DNA of 64,000 nt from sequence record PQ306574.1. The stretch is one strand, 5' to 3'. Below are positions 4,288 to 59,210 of the stretch, piece by piece. The DNA comes from Escherichia phage vB_EcoM_PTE-Eco09. The position numbers and the translations under genes were made by a program. Under the pieces are notes generated by a model. It saw only the letters and a list, made by a program, of their open reading frames with translations, did not search any database and had not been told where the DNA came from. Numbering within the stretch: the first letter of the stretch is position 1; each line of letters starts with the position of its first letter.

Positions 4288-5489
4288 ATGTATTTTCTGT
4301 CATGTGAGCGAGTGGGTGATAAGATCTACGAGCGTTATATTGATGATGCTGGACAAGAACAAGAGCGTTACGTTGAATATACGCCAACTTTATTTCATCA
4401 TGCCGCGCCTGGTATGGTTACGAATTATAAAGATATCTATGGCAAGCCTTGCATTGCTAAAAAATTCCCATCTATGAACGAGGCCAACAAATGGCGTAAA
4501 AAGATGGGAGAAATGGGGCAGGAGGCACTAGGGATGGATGATTTTATCATCTCCTATCTGTCTGATACGTATAAAGGCGAGATTCGATATGACCGAAATA
4601 AAATCCGTGTAGCATGGGTTGATATCGAGGTCACTGCCCCAGAATTTCCTAAACCAGAAGAAGCGAAATATCCTATCGATGCAATTACGCATTATGATTC
4701 CGTACATGATCGTTTCTTTGTATTTGACTTGAAAGGAAAAAACGGTGAAATCTGGGAAGCAAGCAAGTCTATTCTTCGACCTGATATTGTAGAGCGCGTT
4801 GTTTATAACGTCTATGACACAGAAGATGAATTGCTGTTAGAATACATCCGATTCTTTGAGGAAAACCGACCCGTTGGTTTCACTGGCTGGAACACAGAAA
4901 CATTCGATATTCCATATATCATTAAACGTATCAGTAATAAGTTCGGAAGTAGAACCGCTAACCGTCTAAGCCCGTGCGGTAAGATTAAATCCAGAATCTC
5001 ACAGGATGATTTTGGCAACGAGCGTGAAGCATTTACGATCATGGGGATCGAAAGCCTTGATTATATTGACCTGTACAAGAAATTTAGCTTTACGACTCAA
5101 CCAACATATGCGTTAGATTATGTTGCTGAATATGAGACAGGAATCGGTAAGGTTGATTATGATGGTCCGTTAAAGAAATTGCGTGATGACAACCATCAAC
5201 TTTACATCGATTATAACATCGGCGACGTTGATCGTGTGCTGGCGATTGATAAAAAGCGTGGATTTATCGATCTTGTGTATAGTCTATGTTTCTATGCAAA
5301 GATTAAATTTAACCATGTTTATAACCCGATGAAAGTATGGGATGCTATTATCTTCGGATCTCTGAAAGCTGAGGGTAAAGTAGTACCGGAAAATAAGATA
5401 CAGCCTAAGCAGACTTATCCTGGCGCATTTGTAAAAGAACCTGTGCCGAATGCTTACCGCTGGATGATGAGTTTTGACCTTACTTCCCT
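4288..5489 (+). CDS. 43: DNA polymerase gp43, exon 1 (N-terminal/exonuclease half, ends within the SLYPS motif)
   Basis: MYFLSCERVGDKIYERYID matches the T4 gp43 N-terminus; FDIEV exo motif. The frame hits a stop 7 nt after the proposed 5' splice site. Confidence 0.9.
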
Positions 5490-6602
5490 AAACTGATATG
5501 GGGCTTTCACTGGTGACAGTGATCGAATAACCTGCTTAATTGCTGGGAAATCTCTAAGGAGACAATCAGCAGCAGTTGCATTTTGAGCTAACGTGTCTTA
5601 TAATGTATATAAATATTGATATACATTGGAGGCGCGAGATGAAAGACATTTTAAGAAAGTACGAAATACATAACGAGGAAGCATTAAACGACTACATTAA
5701 ACTGGTGTCTAATCCGTATCAGGGTGAAGAATATTCCGAGGTGCATCATATATGCCCGAAGTCAATGTTCCCTGAATATCTGTTAGATAAATGGAATCTT
5801 GTTAGGCTTAAGTTTGAAGACCACGTAGAGGCGCATCGGTTATTGTGATTAATATTCAATAACGGTGAATGCAAGAGAGCATATGCTTTCATCTCTAGAG
5901 GATCTTATGACGATAAAGTGAAGGCGTTAACCAAAGATGCATTCGCTGGAGACAATAACCCAGCCAAGCGAGAGGAAGTTAGACTGAAAATATCCGAAAA
6001 CAAGACCGGAAAAGCCAGAACCGATATGAGCGGAAAGAAGTATTTCGGGGCTGATGAGGACATTATACGAAAAGGTCTTGATTCTATGGCAGAAAAGCTA
6101 AAGAATACTGTTATCGTTAAGGATAAGGAAGGAAATCGGTTTAGAGTTAGTTGTGATGATCCTAGATATGTTTCCGGTGAGTTAGTATCATTTAATGCTG
6201 GAGAGAAGCGCGAAAATTCAGCGTCTAAACGACCGGAAGTTATGAGTAAAATAATGTCAAAACGTAATGAAACTTATGCTAAATTTGCAAGTTTCACATT
6301 TGATGAAATGGTGAATTTTCTTGTTGAAGCACATAATTCAGGAAAAGAGATCTTTGGTAAGAAGAAACCTTTTGCCAAGAATTATAGCGGATACTGTAAG
6401 AGAACCCCGTTTGATCAAAATGAGCTTAAAGATGCAGTTGTTCAACGACTATCGAAAGGGTAACGAACCGAGTAGAGTAGAATCAAGCGATTCGAAATGG
6501 CAGGATTCTCTATGAGAATGTGATATAGTCTGATCTACATGGTGACATGTAGCAGTTCGCAAGAGAACGGGCGCGGGAGTAGCGAACCGCGCTGAACATA
6601 TG
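5490..6602 (+). mobile_element. putative group I self-splicing intron in gene 43
   Basis: U at 5489 can pair with G5500 (P1: CCCU/GGGG); terminal G at 6602; P10 pairing GAUAU (5495-5499) with exon 2 GUAUC (6603-6607). Core-like elements AAUUGCUGGGAAA, AAUCAGCAG and GAUAUAGUC; GNRA hairpins. Joining the exons restores TSL-YPSIIRQVNISPETI. Confidence 0.65.
5639..6463 (+). pseudogene. intron-encoded HNH homing endonuclease with NUMOD3-like C-terminal region, interrupted by an in-frame TGA (5846-5848)
   Basis: HNH-like motif EVHHICPKS...NLVRL...HVEAH in the first 69 codons; the same frame continues after the TGA into NUMOD3-like NPAKREEVRLKISENKTGK. RBS GGAGG before ATG 5639. Confidence 0.6.
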
Positions 6603-8079
6603 GTATCCATCAATCATCCGTCAGGTTAATATTTCGCCGGAAACAATCGCCGGATCTTTTGATGCTGCACCGATGCACGAGTATATCAATAAAACTGCCC
6701 CGCGTCCGAGTGATGAGTATTCTTGCTCTCCTAACGGATGGATGTATAGAAAAGATATTCACGGTATCGTACCGATTGAGATTAAAAAGGTATTCGATCA
6801 GCGTAAGCAGTACAAAAACATGATGTTGGCATGTGATCGCAATGCTGAACTCTGTAAAGCGATTCTACACGATGAAAATCATGTTTATGGGGGAACCATT
6901 AGCTATAGCGTTGAAGTACGTCACGACTTTGATGAAGCGTTTAAATCGATGCTTTCTGAATTAAGTAAAGATGCCTTAGAGAAATTGCTGGAAGAATGTA
7001 AAGACGAGTCGATCTTGTGCAATACAAACCAGCTTTCTCGAAAAGTTTTGATCAACTCCCTTTATGGTGCGTTGGGGAATCCTAAATTCCGTTTTTATGA
7101 TCTCCGTAACGCTAGTGCGATCACCTTGTTTGGTCAGCTTGCAATTCAGTGGATTGAGCGTAAGATTAACGAATACTTAAACGAGCTTTGCGGAACAACC
7201 GATTTTGCATATGTTCGTTATTGTGATACTGACTCCGTTTATGTGCTGGTTAACAATGTTGTTGATAAGGTTGGCGGGGAAGACCGTTTCGACGATACCG
7301 AAAAACTTGTTGACTTCCTTGATAATTTCGGTAAACATCGAATGGAACCTATTATCGACAAGGGATATCGCGAGTTATGCGAGTACATGAACAACTATGA
7401 GCACTTGATGTTTATGGACCGTGAGGCAATTGCTGGTCCTCCGTTGAAATCTGCGGGTATCGGTGGATTCTGGACTGGCAAAAAGCGTTATGCTCTTAAT
7501 GTTTGGGATATGGAAGGAACGCGCTTTGCTGAACCTAAGCTAAAAATCATGGGCTTGGAAACGCAACGTAGCTCCACCCCTAAAGCATGTCAGAAATCAC
7601 TGAAAGAATGTATTCGCCGTATGTTGCAGGAAGGTGAAGAGTCATTGCAGGAATACTACGGTATTTTTGAGCAAGAATTTAGAAAACTTGATTATCTTGA
7701 GGTTGCTGCGGTATCATCTGCAAACAACCTACAGAAATACAGCGATTCAAACGGGTATCCGATTAAGGGTTGTCCGTATGCGGTTAAGAGTGTATTGTGT
7801 TATAATCGTAATGCTCGAAAATTCGGACTAGATCCAATTCGTGAGGGCGAGAAGGTTATGATTGTACCGCTGAAAGATCGAAATCCGTTTGGAGAAATCT
7901 GTTTTGGTTGGTTGTCCGGTACTCGTATTCCTCCAGAAATTGAATCAGAGGTGTTAAAGTGGTTAGACTGGCCTTTGTTGTTTAATAAGACTTTCGTCAA
8001 ACCACTGGAGAACATTACCACGGCTGCAAAGCTGCAATATGAGAAAGTTGCTTCTCTGACTGACCTGTTTGACATTTAA
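6603..8079 (+). CDS. 43: DNA polymerase gp43, exon 2 (polymerase half)
   Basis: Frame is open from 6583 and encodes YPSIIRQVNISPETIAG upstream of the first Met (6673). Contains YGALG, DTDS motifs; C-terminal SLTDLFDI resembles the clamp-binding tail. Confidence 0.9.
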
Positions 8080-21941: not shown

Positions 21942-24056
21942 ATGAAAATGCATATTGATAATGAAGAAGTATTTGGCAGTGACCTGAGCGGTGCGGTTGA
22001 TTTTTCACTGAAAGCAAGTAGCAAGGCTTTTATGGTGCTTTCTAAGAACACTTATCAATATTGTGAGCGTGCTTGCGTCCGTGAGTATTCGTGCAATGCT
22101 ACCGACACTCACAAAGAAGCCGGAACCTTAGATCGTCCGTTTGATATTCATTTACCGACTGCAATCGAACCGTATTTCTCTGTGCGTGATTATGGTACTG
22201 GTATTCCGTCTAAGAAAGAATTAGAACAACTGTTTACGGTTTACTTTGAATCAACAAAAGACCAGACTAATGACTATATCGGGTCTTTTGGTTTAGGTGC
22301 GAAATCTGCTTATAGCTACACTGACACCTTTACAATCGTAAACTATTACAATGGTCGCGCTTATGGCTTTACGGCATTTGTGCAAAACTCTATGCCGAAA
22401 ATGGTGCAGATTTTCGACGAACCGACCTATGAAGACAATGGTCTGAAAATCACTATTCCGGTGAAAGAAAAAGATATTCAGACATGGCATCGAGAAGCGC
22501 AATTTGTACTGCGTCATTTTGGGGAACACAAACCTAATATCAATGCAATCGAAATTAATTATTTCCCTAGCTTTGATAATTATTATGTTTGTAATGGGCG
22601 TGATAACGATTCCTATGTAGTATATGCAATCATGGGTAAGATCCAGTATCCGATCCCGTATGAATATGTTCGCGGAACATGGTTAGAAGCTGTAAACCGC
22701 CAGCACCAGACCATTTACATTAATTTTGAGTTGGGTGATCTGGACCTGATGCCATCGCGTGAAGAAGTTCACTTGTCAATTGAGACTAAAGCGAACATCG
22801 AAAAACGCATTGCAGAAATCAATGAAATGATGTTGGAAAAGGTCAAAGAGAAGATCGCCAACATTAAAACAGAGCGTAAACTTGCGCAATTTATGAGCGA
22901 GTATTCATCGACTCAACGCAATATTATTAGCAAGATGGGTAAGATCGGGCAGTGGGATGATCCGGTAGCAATCTATAATAAGTTTGTGAATGCGGGTAAA
23001 GATTCGCCTAATGACGTAGAAGGTCAGGTGTATACTCTGTATCGTACTCGTCACACAATCAGTAAATTGCGCCCTGCTTTCGTTAGCAGTCAATACAACA
23101 TTACGCATTTTGTATGGATGCATAAAGAAGATATTATGTGTCTTATTGATGATACCGATAAACCGAAACTACGCGCACTGACTCTTAACGGTATGGTCCA
23201 GGAATACGGCATCAATAAAAAGGTACTGGTGTTCCGTCAGCGCAACGAAAAACATATGGAAACTTTCGAGTACATCAAACAGTATTATGATGATTCTGAA
23301 ATGACCGTGATTAAAGTTTCTGAGGCCGATGATCTGCGTGCTAAAGCAGTTAAACCGGAGAAGACCGAGCGTACACGTACACAACGTGAAGCGACTCCTA
23401 AGCTGCCTAACGTGTATATCATGGAAAAGATTGGTGACAGTTGGCATAAAACCAGCCATCACATGAAAGCGGCAGAGATTCGCGAGTTATCAGGCTTGCA
23501 CATGTTCCGCGTAGGTGATGCATTCGAAAGCCGTAGTCGTAAATCGATCCATAGTGAAAATACATTACACACGGCGCTTGACTACTTCGGGGTAACAAAG
23601 TATATTATTACTCGAAACGAGACACAAAAATATCTCGTTGACGAACAATTGGAATGTGCGCTAGAATTTGTTCGCGGTAAGCTGGCTGGTCTGGCTAAGA
23701 AGGTTAAGACCAATCATCTGGGGTATGGCGAATATCTGGGTGTGATCACTATGTTGTTTCATGACGATGAACTAGAAAGCTGTGTTCCAGAATTTATTGA
23801 CAGACTGTACGGTCGTCATTATAATAAAGAGGTTTCCAAGTTACTCCTTCGTACTCGTTGGATTATGGACGAAGAAACTAAAAAGATTTGTGATGAAAAA
23901 TTCACGGTAGCAAACGAACGAATTAAAGCAGTTTGTGCGAAGTTTAAAGAGAATAGCCCGTTACTGTATGATATTGTAGATAACTGGTATCGTATTCTGC
24001 ATAATGACAAACGCGCACAAGACTTTATGAAACTGGTTAAGAATGTTAAATTTTAA
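21942..24056 (+). CDS. rIIA: rIIA-like protein with N-terminal GHKL-type ATPase fold
   Basis: 704 aa; Bergerat-fold motifs (DYGTGIP, GSFGLGAKSAYSY); position 39 -> rIIA -> rIIB as in T4. Confidence 0.7.
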   Translation: MKMHIDNEEVFGSDLSGAVDFSLKASSKAFMVLSKNTYQYCERACVREYSCNATDTHKEAGTLDRPFDIHLPTAIEPYFSVRDYGTGIPSKKELEQLFTVYFESTKDQTNDYIGSFGLGAKSAYSYTDTFTIVNYYNGRAYGFTAFVQNSMPKMVQIFDEPTYEDNGLKITIPVKEKDIQTWHREAQFVLRHFGEHKPNINAIEINYFPSFDNYYVCNGRDNDSYVVYAIMGKIQYPIPYEYVRGTWLEAVNRQHQTIYINFELGDLDLMPSREEVHLSIETKANIEKRIAEINEMMLEKVKEKIANIKTERKLAQFMSEYSSTQRNIISKMGKIGQWDDPVAIYNKFVNAGKDSPNDVEGQVYTLYRTRHTISKLRPAFVSSQYNITHFVWMHKEDIMCLIDDTDKPKLRALTLNGMVQEYGINKKVLVFRQRNEKHMETFEYIKQYYDDSEMTVIKVSEADDLRAKAVKPEKTERTRTQREATPKLPNVYIMEKIGDSWHKTSHHMKAAEIRELSGLHMFRVGDAFESRSRKSIHSENTLHTALDYFGVTKYIITRNETQKYLVDEQLECALEFVRGKLAGLAKKVKTNHLGYGEYLGVITMLFHDDELESCVPEFIDRLYGRHYNKEVSKLLLRTRWIMDEETKKICDEKFTVANERIKAVCAKFKENSPLLYDIVDNWYRILHNDKRAQDFMKLVKNVKF

Positions 24057-33692: not shown

Positions 33693-36635
33693 TTAATTCT
33701 TTTTAAGTTCCGCTAGTTCAGCTTTAACGGCTTTCAATTCTTCGCTCATTTCCTGAAACGCCTTAATTAAAAGAGCGTTGACAGCGGAGTTAGAAATTGT
33801 TAAGATCTCTTCTGGATTATCTGGATCGCCGATCTTAGAAGTTGTTACGGCTTCCGGCAATTCTTTTTCAAGATCCTGAGCAATAATACCAACTTCATGA
33901 GCAATGACAGTACGGTCGGTTAAAGATTTAACCTTGTCATAGGTGTATACCGTCAAGCGATTAACTTTATCGGTTGCATTCTCTTTATACTCTTCCTTGT
34001 TGATTTTAAGGCGAGCATCAGAACGAATATACACATCGTTAAAGTTACCATTGCGACCAGCTTGGAAATCACCGGAGGCGTTAAAGTCAAAGTTTGTGGT
34101 ATGAATATGAAGACGTGCCATAGCATTAGTAATAACACCACTAGGAACGTGTACACCCATTGCTGCGATGTGGTCGAAACCCCATTTGGTCGCTTTCCAT
34201 ACGTTATATGCGGAAGTTTGAGCATTAGGACAATCAACCAATAAGCCAGCAGCGCGAGTTTTCCATTCTGACCATGCACCACCTTGTACTTCTCCGCGAA
34301 TCAGGCCATTACCATCACCGGATACAGTGCCAGATTCCAACTGGATCATTTTATCCGCAAATTTCCACGCCTGGGCTTGTTTCTGACCACGGAAGCGAAT
34401 AACACCAGCATCATCGCAGTACATCAAGCCTAACTCTAAACCGTTTGGATCTCTAAACCAGATGTGCTTATTGCCAGTGCGTTTAAACTCAATATCAGCA
34501 CCGTTCAGGGTAATATTACCGCCAGTGTGAATTGCTTTAGGCTTAACAGTACCATTAATGCCAAACTCGATTAATTCAGTACCCGGACCACCCGCACGTT
34601 GAGTATACCAATGCCAGCCGCTTTCATCAGCACATTCAAATACTTGTTTACGAGCATCAGCGCCCCATGCACGAATATTGAAACTAGAAGTAGCTGTACC
34701 CTTACCCCAGCGAATCAGACCAGCAGATTCCAAATCACCGAAGAATTTAGTTTTAATCGCACCAGTTGCTAAAGTACGTTCAGTGGTGAAGTGAGCACCT
34801 TTACTATCTTCAAGCTGTATAACGTTATCACGAGCGTTATTGCTATCGCCCCAATGACTCAAACGGAAATAGTCGCGGGATTGTCCAGCACCAGCATCAA
34901 ATGTTAAATATTGGCCTTTAATGTATGTGTTTCCAGCAAAACGAGCAGCACGACTTGCACGTTCTAAGACTAATGCACCTTCTTTACCATCACCACCCAA
35001 AGTAACATTACCGCTACCCAGATTGTAAGTGAATGGACGATAGCCGTTCCAACCACCAAATTTATCATTTTCGGCAGTAGACAGAAGATATACGTTTTGA
35101 CCATCATTACGCCAGAATGCACCATAGTTACCGTAAATCATACGGAATGCATCACTGTTAGCAGCTACATATTGACCATTGGTGTATACAATTTTTGTTT
35201 TTCCTGTAGTCAAATTTACTTGTCCACTACCTTCCAAATCAAATGAGTTAGCACCAACATCATTACGCCACACAAAACCATCACTAGTACCATCCGCATG
35301 ACCGATATAACCACTACGTTGGTTTTTACCATCACGACGATCCCACCACGCCATATATGCAGCTTGACCAGTCTGTCGATGTAAAGTCATCGCATTACCA
35401 CCACCGTGCAATTCCATTTTACCAGTAATTACATATCCTTTATAATTACCCGGTATTGCACTATTAGAATCAATTCTAATAACTTCTGTAGAATCTGTAG
35501 CACCAGTAGCAAGACGATATACAGCACCCTGAACGGTTTCATGCCAGGTCATTTCATTATAGTTACTACGGAATTTACGAATATATTTTCGTCCAGTACC
35601 CCTATCATTACTCAAGTGAACAATATCATAACTGTTTTGTGTGTTATCGTCAAAACTCAACACACCTCGTTTGTTTTCGGTGTTGAAAAGAGTTACAGCA
35701 CGACCGCCAATAACATTATCACCAGCAGGACGTTCAGCAACAAAATCTGGAACGTCATGAACTACCAGATTAACACCAACACTTTTACCAAATTCAACAA
35801 TAACGTTATCAGTGTAACGCTGATATTTCACATAGATATCATAGTTATCACCAGAAGTATTAACAGCCAAAACATCAAATGATTTGTTTGTATTTCGGCG
35901 ATATGCAATAACGTTAACACCTTTAGGGCGACCATTTCCACTGCGAATAACAATTTCTACAATATCAACTTGATCGTATGCAGTAACGTTATATCCGTTA
36001 CCGCCATGAATACGGAAAAATACGCTAAGACCGTTTTGTGGAATCATTGCAGTTGCTAATTTAAAATAGCCTTCAACGATATCACTAGGAGATGTAGCAA
36101 GTTTAACGTTCTTAACAAACATACGGTCAACTTCTTGTTTGCTATAGACGTTCAATTCTCCTGGAGTTGGTTTATCACCTTCGTGATACATTTTATAGCT
36201 AAATGCTTTTTGACCTTCTCTATTATAGCCATAGGTTTCAACACGAGATCCAGCAGACGCATAACGGAAAGTAAATCCGCGACCGTGCGCTTTACCGGCA
36301 GAATGAGGAACGTTAAGAGTTAGATCCCTGAGTCCATCTTGACCATTGGTACGGAAAGCACCAAAGTAGTTAAGATCTCTCGCTGTCTGGTCTTCCAAAT
36401 AGTTAGCTGTTTTACTTAAGATATAATTATTACCTTTAACCTTACCCGCCATTGTAACATCGCGGTCATACACCGGAGGACAACTTAAATTGATAATATC
36501 ACCGGAATCATTTTTAGTAAGAAGATATTGATCCGCAAGGTTGATTGCCAATTCCCCCGGATTCATCGTACTAGCATCCGGTTTACGACCTTTAGTGCTA
36601 GTGCGTTTAAATTGGATTCTGCTTAAATCTGCCAT
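33693..36635 (-). CDS. 37: long tail fibre distal subunit gp37 with C-terminal intramolecular chaperone domain
   Basis: 980 aa; N-terminus MADLSRIQFKRTSTKGRKPDAS...GELAINLAD matches the T4 gp37 N-terminus; C-terminal SDARLKINKEEY plus coiled coil is typical of autoproteolytic chaperone domains. Confidence 0.8.
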   Translation of the reverse strand: MADLSRIQFKRTSTKGRKPDASTMNPGELAINLADQYLLTKNDSGDIINLSCPPVYDRDVTMAGKVKGNNYILSKTANYLEDQTARDLNYFGAFRTNGQDGLRDLTLNVPHSAGKAHGRGFTFRYASAGSRVETYGYNREGQKAFSYKMYHEGDKPTPGELNVYSKQEVDRMFVKNVKLATSPSDIVEGYFKLATAMIPQNGLSVFFRIHGGNGYNVTAYDQVDIVEIVIRSGNGRPKGVNVIAYRRNTNKSFDVLAVNTSGDNYDIYVKYQRYTDNVIVEFGKSVGVNLVVHDVPDFVAERPAGDNVIGGRAVTLFNTENKRGVLSFDDNTQNSYDIVHLSNDRGTGRKYIRKFRSNYNEMTWHETVQGAVYRLATGATDSTEVIRIDSNSAIPGNYKGYVITGKMELHGGGNAMTLHRQTGQAAYMAWWDRRDGKNQRSGYIGHADGTSDGFVWRNDVGANSFDLEGSGQVNLTTGKTKIVYTNGQYVAANSDAFRMIYGNYGAFWRNDGQNVYLLSTAENDKFGGWNGYRPFTYNLGSGNVTLGGDGKEGALVLERASRAARFAGNTYIKGQYLTFDAGAGQSRDYFRLSHWGDSNNARDNVIQLEDSKGAHFTTERTLATGAIKTKFFGDLESAGLIRWGKGTATSSFNIRAWGADARKQVFECADESGWHWYTQRAGGPGTELIEFGINGTVKPKAIHTGGNITLNGADIEFKRTGNKHIWFRDPNGLELGLMYCDDAGVIRFRGQKQAQAWKFADKMIQLESGTVSGDGNGLIRGEVQGGAWSEWKTRAAGLLVDCPNAQTSAYNVWKATKWGFDHIAAMGVHVPSGVITNAMARLHIHTTNFDFNASGDFQAGRNGNFNDVYIRSDARLKINKEEYKENATDKVNRLTVYTYDKVKSLTDRTVIAHEVGIIAQDLEKELPEAVTTSKIGDPDNPEEILTISNSAVNALLIKAFQEMSEELKAVKAELAELKKN

Positions 36636-43346: not shown

Positions 43347-43928
43347 TTGTGTGAGGTGTTTGTTGTGGCAAAAACAAAATTTTGGGATATCGAGACACAG
43401 AAAGCGATAAAAGGTAGATTCTATCATGTCGATGGAATATTATACCATTTAAAGGATTCTGTAGCTGCTGGATTCCGAAAAGAAGGGTCCATATACAAAA
43501 AAGGTGATGTGGTAAGGGTATGTCTCCATAAAGAAGGATATTTATACTTTACATTTTACAACAATGGTCATAAACTTAATCTGTTTGTACATAGAGTTGT
43601 CTGGTTTTTAGAGTATGGTACTCAGGTTGAACGAATAGATCACATAGACCAAGACAAAACTAACAATAGACCGTCAAACATGAGAGAAGCAACCGAACAG
43701 CAAAATCAGTTTAACGTCTCAAAGAAAAAGGCTTGCCATAGCAAATATAAAGGTGTATCATTATCACCAAGCAAGAAAAAGCCGTGGAAGGCGTATATTG
43801 TTATCAATCGAAAGAATATACATCTAGGATACTTTGAGACAGAAGTTGAGGCGGCTAAGGCTTATGACCGTGCAGCACATGAAATAGTTGGCGAGTATGC
43901 TTATTTAAATTTTCCAAAAAGAGGATGA
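43347..43928 (+). CDS. free-standing HNH homing endonuclease with C-terminal AP2-type DNA-binding domain
   Basis: HNH_3-like HRVVWFLEYG...ERIDHIDQDKTNNRPSNM; AP2-like YKGVSLSPSKKKPWKAYIVINRKNIHLGYFETEVEAAKAYDRAA. No in-frame ATG; start is TTG 43347 or GTG 43356/43365. Confidence 0.7.
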   Translation: MCEVFVVAKTKFWDIETQKAIKGRFYHVDGILYHLKDSVAAGFRKEGSIYKKGDVVRVCLHKEGYLYFTFYNNGHKLNLFVHRVVWFLEYGTQVERIDHIDQDKTNNRPSNMREATEQQNQFNVSKKKACHSKYKGVSLSPSKKKPWKAYIVINRKNIHLGYFETEVEAAKAYDRAAHEIVGEYAYLNFPKRG

Positions 43929-47987: not shown

Positions 47988-48015
47988 TTGACATGCTTAT
48001 GTGGTAATGTATAAT
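47988..48015 (+). promoter_or_regulatory. sigma70-like early promoter
   Basis: TTGACA-16 nt-TATAAT, then CATCGAAACAATGGAGGA leader. Confidence 0.55.
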
Positions 48016-48045
48016 GCACACATCGAAACAATGGAGGATAAAAAT

Positions 48046-49260
48046 ATGTTAGTACGTCAAGCGCATGAAATTGAATGGACTAAGGAGAAACATAATTGTA
48101 GAGCGAAAAGCCCAACAGATTTTTATGGTAAAATTTTAGAAATATGTAAAACAGAAAATTTAGTTTTTGTCGGCTTTGTTGGGGAATGGGAAGGAAACAA
48201 AACAAAAATAAAACTTATCTGCGAACATGGTCATGAATGGATATGTTCGATAGATAAATTTGTAAGTAAAGGAACAAGATGTTCTCATAAACAATGTAAA
48301 GGTAAACGAATATCTAAAAAATTGTCTATATCCGAAACGGAATACAAAACGAGAATTTTAGAAATATGTGAAACTGAAAATCTAATTTTCTTAGGTTTTG
48401 TTGGTGAATGGAAAGGGTGTGATACTAAAATTCGCATAAAATGCAAATACGGTCATGAATGGGATGTATCTATATATAGCTTCACAAAAATGAATACCAG
48501 ATGCCCTACATGCGCAGGACAGAACAGGACAAAAGACGAATACAAAACGAGAATTTTAGAAATATGTGAAACTGAAAATATAATTTTCTTAGGTTTTGTT
48601 GGTGAATGGAAAGGATGCCGCACAAAAATAAAACTTAGCTGCAAACACGGTCATGAATGGATATCTTCCATATTATGTTTTGTGTATCAAAATACTCGCT
48701 GTCCTGTATGTGTTGGTAGATTGTCTATCGACGATAGAATGATACAGATTAATCAAGTTTGCAATTCTTTAGGTTATGTAATAATTAAGATCCACGAAGA
48801 ATGGAAAAACACAGAAACTAAAATTGATGTTAAATGTTTATGTGATTATATATGGACAACAACAATACATAGAGTCATACATGGGACTACAGGTTGCAGA
48901 AAGTGTGCTACACATGGATACAATACAAAAAAATCGGGGACTCTTTATATACAGAAATTAACCAACGATGATTCCTTTGTTGGTGTGAAATTTGGAATAA
49001 CAAACAGAGACACGAATGAACGAATGAAAAACCAATCATCAAAGTCTAAATTCGACCATGAGATCTTTTATGAATTGACTTTACAAGACGGTCAAAAGAT
49101 CTTAGAATTAGAGAACAAGATCAAGAAAGCGATGAAAGGTAAAACTTCCTATATCTCAAAAGAAGATATGCCGGATGGCTGGACCGAAACAGTAGCGCCG
49201 TCTGAATTGAGCACTATCATGTATATCGTAAAAACTTTTGAAAAAGAGTTGACAGCGTAA
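48046..49260 (+). CDS. protein with three tandem zinc-ribbon repeats and a C-terminal T5orf172/GIY-YIG-like domain
   Basis: Repeats FxGFVGEW.G..TKI...C..GHEW......F......RCP.C; C-terminal GTLYIQKLTNDDSFVGVKFGITNRDTNERM. Confidence 0.55.
   Translation: MLVRQAHEIEWTKEKHNCRAKSPTDFYGKILEICKTENLVFVGFVGEWEGNKTKIKLICEHGHEWICSIDKFVSKGTRCSHKQCKGKRISKKLSISETEYKTRILEICETENLIFLGFVGEWKGCDTKIRIKCKYGHEWDVSIYSFTKMNTRCPTCAGQNRTKDEYKTRILEICETENIIFLGFVGEWKGCRTKIKLSCKHGHEWISSILCFVYQNTRCPVCVGRLSIDDRMIQINQVCNSLGYVIIKIHEEWKNTETKIDVKCLCDYIWTTTIHRVIHGTTGCRKCATHGYNTKKSGTLYIQKLTNDDSFVGVKFGITNRDTNERMKNQSSKSKFDHEIFYELTLQDGQKILELENKIKKAMKGKTSYISKEDMPDGWTETVAPSELSTIMYIVKTFEKELTA
48340..48735 (+). repeat. 198-bp tandem duplication inside the 48046-49260 CDS
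   Basis: About 78 bp from 48340 and from 48538 are identical apart from one mismatch; a more diverged third unit lies upstream near 48121. Confidence 0.75.
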
Positions 49261-55117: not shown

Positions 55118-55765
55118 ATGAACTTACAAAAACTACATGACGCAATCATAGAAAAAGCAAAGACGAGAGGAACCGTTGAAGGGTATAAGGAAACACATCA
55201 TATTTTACCGCGATCTATGGGTGGCGGTGATGAAGTTGATAACCTGATTGAGTTGACAGCAAAAGAACATTTCGTGATTCATCATCTGCTAGCAAAAATT
55301 CATGGTGGACCTATGGCACAAGCATTTGGTATGATGTGTTTAGCAAAAAATGCGAAGACCAATAAAAGAGATTATATTGTTTCGTCTAGGGTATATGAAC
55401 AAGCTAGGGTACTTATCTCTGAACAAAGAAAGGGCAAACCTATGAAAGAAGAAACGCGAAGAAAGATTAGCGAATCTTCGAAAGGTGTGTTGAAATCAGA
55501 AGAGACAAAAGCTAAAATGCGTAAGCCAAAAACAAAGGAGCACGCGTTAAACATTTCAAAAGCTAGAATGGGCAGTAAAAATCCTATGTTTGGGAAACCA
55601 TCGCCAACTAAAGGAATACCACATAGTGAGGAAATGAGAAAGCTGATTGCACAAAGGACAAAGGAAGCAACAATGGCAGATCCTTGTCCGCATTGCGGTA
55701 AAATTACCAATAAAGGCAATTCTCTACGATGGCACTTTGATAACTGTAAAATGAGGAATATGTGA
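55118..55765 (+). CDS. mobE: HNH homing endonuclease with NUMOD3-like repeats (MobE-like)
   Basis: HNH motif HHILPRSMGGGDEVDNLIELTAKEHFVIHH; repeated ...R.KIS.S.KG... NUMOD3-like units; located between nrdA and nrdB like T4 mobE. Confidence 0.75.
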   Translation: MNLQKLHDAIIEKAKTRGTVEGYKETHHILPRSMGGGDEVDNLIELTAKEHFVIHHLLAKIHGGPMAQAFGMMCLAKNAKTNKRDYIVSSRVYEQARVLISEQRKGKPMKEETRRKISESSKGVLKSEETKAKMRKPKTKEHALNISKARMGSKNPMFGKPSPTKGIPHSEEMRKLIAQRTKEATMADPCPHCGKITNKGNSLRWHFDNCKMRNM

Positions 55766-58698: not shown

Positions 58699-58705
58699 TA
58701 AGGTG

Positions 58706-58730
58706 GGCGGGAGAAATCCCGCCTTTGTTG
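58706..58730 (+). terminator. intrinsic terminator
   Basis: GGCGGGA-GAAA-TCCCGCC followed by TTTGTTG. Confidence 0.6.
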
Positions 58731-58748
58731 TGACGTGAGGAAAGGATA

Positions 58749-59210
58749 ATGATTAATGAGCTAATAGAAAACTATGGATTCGTTAAATATTCATGTTTAG
58801 AGTGTAAAGATGGTGACGTGATTCTACCGCCTCAGAAGAACCGTTTAAATGTTCTTTACGCTATTTCGGTTGATGATGAACTGGTATACATTGGTCAGAC
58901 TGTCAATCTCAGAAAGCGGATCAATTATTAACGGACTAGCATTAACAGACAAACACCAACAGCGGATACTCGCAAGAGTAAGAATATTCATAAGGCGCTA
59001 GAGGAAGGTAAGACAGTAACATTCTATTACCGCCAGTGCTTTGAGTTATATATTGAGAATCCAACGGGTAAAGATATTATAAGCACTGCCGATATCGAAG
59101 AACCTGTTTTGATCACCAAATTTAAACCAGAATGGAACACAAATTATGTCAACAAAAGAAAACAACAAAAAAGTTTTAGCATTGTTCAAAAATCTGATGG
59201 CACTATGTGA
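58749..59210 (+). pseudogene. GIY-YIG nuclease-like reading frame interrupted by an in-frame TAA (58929-58931)
   Basis: N-terminal VLYAISVDDELVYIGQTVNLRKRI (GIY...YIG...R); the same frame continues after the TAA through ...EEPVLITKFKPEWNTNY and overlaps the rnlA start. Confidence 0.5.

Follow-up and report, generated by a model that had tools for sequence, protein, structure and literature searches.

The genome of Escherichia phage vB_EcoM_PTE-Eco09 (sequence record PQ306574.1) was analysed over a stretch of 64,000 nucleotides, referred to below as the window. On the plus strand of the window an open reading frame of 60 codons starts with the ATG at 58749 and terminates with the TAA at 58929–58931. 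Past this codon the same frame stays open for 92 further sense codons and ends with the TGA at 59208–59210, its last 65 nt overlapping in another reading frame the start of rnlA (ATG at 59146). The question raised by this locus is which gene has been split here and what the stop within it means. The original prediction considered the frame to be a Seg-like homing endonuclease, i.e. a selfish nuclease that is either decaying or tightly restrained, and pointed to a second interrupted nuclease frame within the insert in gene 43. The coordinates given there were confirmed; the interpretation had to be revised. The features discussed below are collected in Table 1.

Table 1. Positions of denA, of its neighbouring elements and of other nuclease-like frames in the window
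Feature	Position	Strand	Description and evidence
Intrinsic-terminator-like hairpin	58705–58734	+	GGGCGGGA/TCCCGCCT then TTGTTGTG; between the 132-aa ORF and denA
denA, 5' part	58749–58931	+	Codons 1–60 and premature ochre stop; ORF, alignment with 2WSH, phrog_1111
Premature stop TAA in place of Tyr61	58929–58931	+	C→A transversion at 58931; alignment with RB49, kvi and ELT3
denA, 3' part	58932–59210	+	Codons 62–153 and natural TGA; phrog_1111, residue map
Sigma-70-like promoter match	59053–59080	+	TTGAGA, 16-nt spacer, TATTAT; 10/12, consensus match only
rnlA (RNA ligase 1), 389 aa	59146–60315	+	RB49 annotation; an identical protein matches Pfam RNA_lig_T4_1 and T4_Rnl1_C
HNH ORF in the gene 43 insert	5639–6463		Private TGC→TGA at 5846–5848, codon 70; third-position C→A
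193-aa ORF with HNH-like motif	43347–43928		Between gene 34 and rnh; intact, probably mobile
419-aa ORF with repeated Cys-rich modules	48001–49260		No counterpart there in kvi; intact, probably mobile
215-aa HNH ORF	55118–55765		Immediately before nrdB; 32% identity with the ORF of the gene 43 insert; intact, probably mobile

Identity of the interrupted frame

The frame 58749–59210 is one GIY-YIG coding frame split by a TAA. The GIY...YIG...R signature noticed in the original prediction is real, and the residue map of the part preceding the stop contains K13, a degenerate GIY motif (VLY, residues 35–37), YIG (residues 47–49) and R57. The part following the stop contains K76 of the middle region as well as E118 and N130, which correspond to the conserved downstream Glu and Asn described originally. 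Separate translation of the C-terminal part was considered and rejected: the ORF list has no in-frame ATG, GTG or TTG between the stop and 59109, where a TTG is the first such codon.

When codon 61 is read as Tyr, the joined frame matches endonuclease II (EndoII) of phage T4 (PDB 2WSH) with E=2.1e-38 over residues 3–134, i.e. across the stop, with 50% identity over 133 residues. The same joined frame matches the PHROG family phrog_1111 ("endonuclease") with E=4.2e-52. The two halves taken separately fall on adjacent parts of the phrog_1111 profile: residues 1–60 on positions 2–62 (E=1.8e-17) and residues 62–153 on positions 64–138 (E=1.5e-26). The matches of the joined frame and of each half mean that the similarity across the stop is far beyond chance. 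The Pfam GIY-YIG model (PF01541) is passed by the joined frame only (score of 23.9 bits, cut-off 22.6), the N-terminal half alone staying under the cut-off with 18.8 bits, and NCBIfam has no model for the denA protein. As Pfam alone is weak here, the family assignment is based on PDB, PHROGs and the comparison with orthologues.

The 1.1-kb stretch around the frame is matched by 58 phage genomes with 95–99.3% identity, none of them being identical to it; those whose classification was checked are Krischvirus phages (RB49, Phi1, JSE, GEC-3S, kvi and others). The 462 nt that correspond to the frame carry in RB49 the annotation "denA, endonuclease II" (AAQ15449), with exactly matching coordinates, and in kvi the gene kvi_91 is an uninterrupted 153-codon gene of 462 nt whose coordinates match exactly as well. 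Both genes are located between nrdB and rnlA, and the gene order 32-frd-td-nrdA-nrdB ... denA-rnlA-pseT of the window is that of RB49, kvi and T4. By homology and position, the frame is the orthologue of T4 denA (endonuclease II) in an RB49-like Krischvirus.

The protein itself has the architecture of EndoII. It is a single-domain protein of the GIY-YIG type, the homologues of ~136–153 aa align with it end to end and contain no separate DNA-binding domain, and the residues K12 (K13 in the present frame), G49, R57, K76, E118 and N130 of T4 EndoII are conserved. In contrast to the T4 enzyme, the Krischvirus version has a C-terminal tail of 17 residues which overlaps rnlA. A search of the frame for a C-terminal DNA-binding domain revealed no further domain, the extra 17 residues being the tail that JSE has lost by a frameshift. 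In this phage (EU863408, 254–685) denA consists of 143 codons, and its frame departs from that of the relatives after codon 141, where a frameshift in an A-run, close to the A-rich part of the overlap with rnlA, removes only the non-conserved, Krischvirus-specific tail. This loss suggests that the C-terminal tail of denA is dispensable.

These data bear directly on the reading of the frame as a Seg-like GIY-YIG homing endonuclease, i.e. a selfish mobile gene in decay. The idea is a natural one, the frame having the GIY-YIG catalytic motif in common with the Seg/I-TevI-type enzymes and T4-type genomes carrying many mobile nucleases of the Seg and HNH types, several of them in the window. However, the homing enzymes are two-domain proteins with a linker-joined C-terminal DNA-binding domain, and they are sporadic and mobile, whereas the present frame matches nothing else nearly as well as EndoII, a single-domain enzyme with which it aligns over its whole length. 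The gene is also far from sporadic: a denA homologue was found by tblastn in 1150 phage records, 1123 of which cover at least 80% of the query, and every one of the 58 Krischvirus records has denA at this locus. Pooled within Krischvirus, pN/pS of denA is 0.047, and for codons 62–140 it is as low as 0.017, which shows denA to be a functional gene under strong purifying selection in this genus. Finally, the frame carries one lesion only, with no further decay. The homing endonuclease is hardly credible against this background; orthology, distribution and the selection tests effectively refute it.

The premature stop and the other alleles of denA

In the alignment with RB49, kvi and ELT3 the TAA of the window stands against TAC, which is a single C→A change at 58931. 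According to the codon table, TAC→TAA is the sole non-synonymous difference between denA of the window and of kvi, two other differences being synonymous. The denA products of RB49 (AAQ15449), kvi (kvi_91) and other Krischvirus phages, located at the same coordinates, have 99.3% protein identity to that of the window; their genes differ from it in having TAC or TAT at codon 61 and in encoding 153 residues. Besides RB49 and kvi, ~70 other Krischvirus alleles have an uninterrupted gene of 153 codons with Tyr (TAC or TAT) at this position, so that the intact versions sought in related phages at the suggestion of the original prediction do exist.

Of 48 phage records, not one matches exactly a 71-mer bearing the TAA. 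If TAC is put back, 31 records become 100% identical to it, and most of the others gain exactly one match; the Makalu phages do not improve, codon 61 being TAT (also Tyr) in Makalu_002. In each of the 10 SRA/metagenome contigs whose upstream gene gives exactly the same 132-aa protein, codon 61 is TAC and the called denA is 153 aa long. Two environmental alleles (L067 and L069) differ from denA of the window solely at base 58931. Two Logan contigs with identical RnlA (L059 and L060) start within denA past codon 61 and do not cover the site. In the 41 denA loci of IMG/VR no internal stop was found, and the exact-pattern scan of IMG/VR for the TAA form of the site gave no match. A pattern allowing any base at 58931 had no exact match in the metagenome and species-genome collections, and an exact-protein look-up of the 60-aa product returned no record. 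So far, the TAA allele is unique among the collections searched, and gene loss of this kind is itself well known. For example, denA null mutants of T4 (nd28) have lost EndoII by point mutation as well, and the phage is viable (PMC12115623). These mutants differ from the present case in being laboratory-selected and in having hydroxymethylcytosine DNA, whereas the null allele of the window resides in a natural-looking Krischvirus genome.

An intact denA of 153 codons is present in all other Krischvirus alleles examined but one. The exception is ELT3 (PQ368571, 1950–2204), where a 2-bp TA insertion in the YIG-coding region has left an 84-aa product annotated as "endonuclease II". As in the window, denA is inactivated in ELT3, but by a frameshift and not by a nonsense mutation, and at a different position. 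The ELT3 frameshift appears to be independent of the stop in the window, and the loss of denA seems to recur in the genus.

Past the stop, denA of the window shows no non-synonymous change in comparison with 9 of the 10 relatives. The stop has thus arisen too recently for decay to have set in. The term "decaying" used in the original prediction is therefore overstated, as the gene has one C→A change and all the other differences past the stop are synonymous. "Tightly restrained" has no support either, the stop being absent from every other allele examined. The alignments rather point to a very recent null allele created by one C-to-A change. An open frame for the whole enzyme, as EndoII requires, is broken in the window by the TAA at codon 61; being cut at Tyr61, the frame presumably cannot give the enzyme made by T4. 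By descent the locus is the denA gene, and by its predicted product it is a null allele or pseudogene and not a functional member of the family. We consider it quite probable that denA, coding for the single-domain GIY-YIG EndoII of an RB49-like Krischvirus, has undergone here a very recent loss of function by the Tyr61 change TAC→TAA. Overall, the interruption was observed correctly but is nothing unusual: denA is a known gene, and a single recent base change has made it a null allele. The result is mostly a correction of annotation, since a naive reading of the locus gives a decaying homing endonuclease or a 60-aa "hypothetical protein".

Private changes of the window and the second interrupted gene

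Comparison of 96 kvi proteins with the window by tblastn shows that nearly all shared genes are full-length and in a single piece. In-frame stops are present in exactly two of ~90 genes, namely denA and the homologue of kvi_168 (HNH). The latter resides in an insert of ~1.2 kb (5494–6672) which splits gene 43 (DNA polymerase) into the parts 4288–5493 and 6673–8076. The second stop-interrupted nuclease frame of the original prediction is thus an HNH ORF with a single in-frame TGA. The 69-aa remnant of this ORF keeps the HNH motif region and has lost the C-terminal part. With 33.2 bits (E=2.7e-6), the match of the Rfam model Intron_gpI to 6292–6552 falls short of the threshold of 50 bits. Ten phage records have the insert, kvi and ECD7 among them, and AV108 lacks it. 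The stop in the HNH ORF is private to the window as well: over a 73-mer, each of the 10 records having the ORF shows the same two mismatches to the window. The three other endonuclease-like ORFs of Table 1 are intact, so there is no general decay of nucleases in the window.

Counted against a panel of 3–4 genomes, the private differences of the window number 188 and comprise 115 synonymous and 41 non-synonymous substitutions, 1 nonsense substitution (that in denA), 23 non-coding or unmapped changes and 8 indel positions. As nonsense changes are few among private differences dominated by synonymous ones, the genome resembles that of an ordinary natural isolate, in which the stop in denA stands out as an exception that a dispensable gene can tolerate. 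Three more general explanations were considered, and the first two were rejected. An altered genetic code or reassignment of stops is at variance with the observation that 2 of ~90 genes are interrupted, by TAA in one case and TGA in the other, with different amino acids aligned to them. A low-quality assembly disagrees with the lack of frameshifts and with the mostly synonymous character of the private changes. Deliberate engineering or an odd mutational signature, conceivable in view of both stops being C→A, finds no ground in the frequency of this type, which accounts for an unremarkable 23 of the 188 private changes.

A more specific doubt concerns the base at 58931 itself, which might in reality be C (TAC), the A being an error of base calling, consensus or assembly, or a minority variant that has entered the consensus. 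Such an artefact would agree with the uniqueness of the TAA among all alleles examined, with the otherwise complete identity of the allele to the environmental L067 and L069, and with the strong constraint on denA elsewhere. On the other hand, random substitutions in the coding sequences of the window create a stop ~4.5% of the time, and yet two private stops are found, both in dispensable nucleases and none in ~85 other genes. This distribution is better accounted for by real mutations filtered by selection than by random error. The divergence of the window is moreover clean, dominated by synonymous changes and devoid of frameshifts. Altogether, an artefact is unlikely, and a real loss of denA is preferred.

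It was also considered, in the sense of the "tightly restrained" nuclease of the original prediction, that the stop is real and the gene is still expressed, either at a low level by ochre read-through with a near-cognate tRNA-Tyr or fully in an ochre suppressor host inserting tyrosine, so that a toxic nuclease, active on unmodified cytosine DNA, would be made in trace amounts. Both private stops are third-position changes (UAC→UAA and UGC→UGA), and near-cognate misreading of UAA and UGA would restore the original Tyr and Cys. UAA is the most efficiently terminated stop codon in E. coli, which speaks against appreciable read-through, and no tRNA gene, hence no suppressor, is present within the 64-kb window. 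Both stops are located in DNA endonucleases, and Krischvirus phages have no genes for hydroxymethylcytosine synthesis, the shielding of their own cytosine DNA from DenA being an open question in the literature (PMC8056088; PMC12115623). The perfectly preserved frame downstream of the TAA would fit read-through, but a recent mutation explains it equally well. The stop occurs in no relative examined, all of which have TAC or TAT; this excludes an evolved means of regulation, and ~70 relatives express intact denA without such a restraint. Leaky or conditional expression is quite improbable for these reasons, and the simple loss of denA remains the preferred reading.

The location of the second private stop in a nuclease gene hints at something non-random (selection or leaky expression) which is not explained by a simple neutral pseudogene. 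The two stops would then be no coincidence: nucleases attacking the phage's own cytosine DNA might be counter-selected under some conditions, or be kept at trace level if UAA and UGA are misread by near-cognate tRNAs as Tyr and Cys, with regeneration of the wild-type proteins. We regard this as a very speculative idea with little chance of being correct; if true, the isolate would capture the down-tuning of nucleases in progress.

Some other differences of the window were observed in the course of the comparison. The distal tail-fibre gene (33714–36635, minus strand) is 45–65% identical to kvi_118, and no match to the receptor-recognition protein kvi_119 was found in the window, which suggests that a host-range module has been swapped. 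In rIIA a 6-nt in-frame insertion (23377–23382) is private to the window in comparison with kvi, AV108 and OZ035808.

Predicted consequences and neighbouring elements

The roles of K12, G49, R57, K76 and E118 in T4 EndoII have been established previously (PMC2764454), while N130 is known here as conserved in the alignment only. E118 coordinates Mg, and the enzyme is catalytically dead when this residue is replaced by Ala (E118A); recognition and binding require K76 (PMC2764454). In the window, translation would end after residue 60, and the resulting fragment, devoid of K76, E118 and N130, would give no active EndoII; the 60-residue product is expected to be inactive because K76 and the catalytic E118 are lost. 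The 3' 279 nt of the gene would not be translated as EndoII.

In T4, denA initiates the breakdown of host DNA and the scavenging of its nucleotides, denA mutants are viable (PMC2764454; PMC12115623), and strains with the denA mutation nd28 are in routine laboratory use (PMC12115623). The present phage should be viable too because denA is dispensable. Nicking and breakdown of host DNA are expected to be weaker or absent, with less nucleotide scavenging. Transduction might be increased, and some polarity on the overlapping rnlA is possible. The setting differs from that of T4, as Krischvirus phages are without the hydroxymethylcytosine pathway which protects T4 DNA from EndoII, and the genes denB, ndd and alc are absent from them as well, denA and dCTPase being kept (PMC12115623, PMC8056088). 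RB49 is a generalized transducer (PMC12115623, PMC8056088).

A natural denA-null Krischvirus together with near-isogenic intact relatives (kvi, or phages of the L067/L069 type) would be a ready test of the role of EndoII in the absence of hydroxymethylcytosine. Such a pair bears on the degradation of host DNA, on the escape of the phage's own DNA and on the rise of generalized transduction upon loss of denA, the last question being relevant to the therapeutic use of RB49-like phages (PMC12115623). The second nuclease knockout alongside denA is a small curiosity in a T4-type phage with cytosine DNA. The strong selection on ~70 alleles argues that the loss of denA is not neutral in nature, and for this reason the allele may be a variant of laboratory propagation or a transient one, and not a stable trait of the lineage.

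With the strong terminator-like hairpin situated just 5' of denA (Table 1), denA and rnlA need either read-through or a promoter of their own. Several related genomes have a terminator annotated at this place. The 3' part of denA contains a sigma-70-like promoter match located 66 nt before the ATG of rnlA. By itself this match is not significant, as 5 promoter-like sites were found against 3.4 ± 2.4 expected, but it could supply rnlA independently of denA. The start of rnlA is annotated inconsistently: the equivalent of 59146 is used in RB49, Makalu_002 and SSG23, that of 59197 in kvi, ECD7 and KFS-EC, and in JSE and ELT4 the start is placed elsewhere. The 389-aa form is called in the two Logan contigs starting inside denA.
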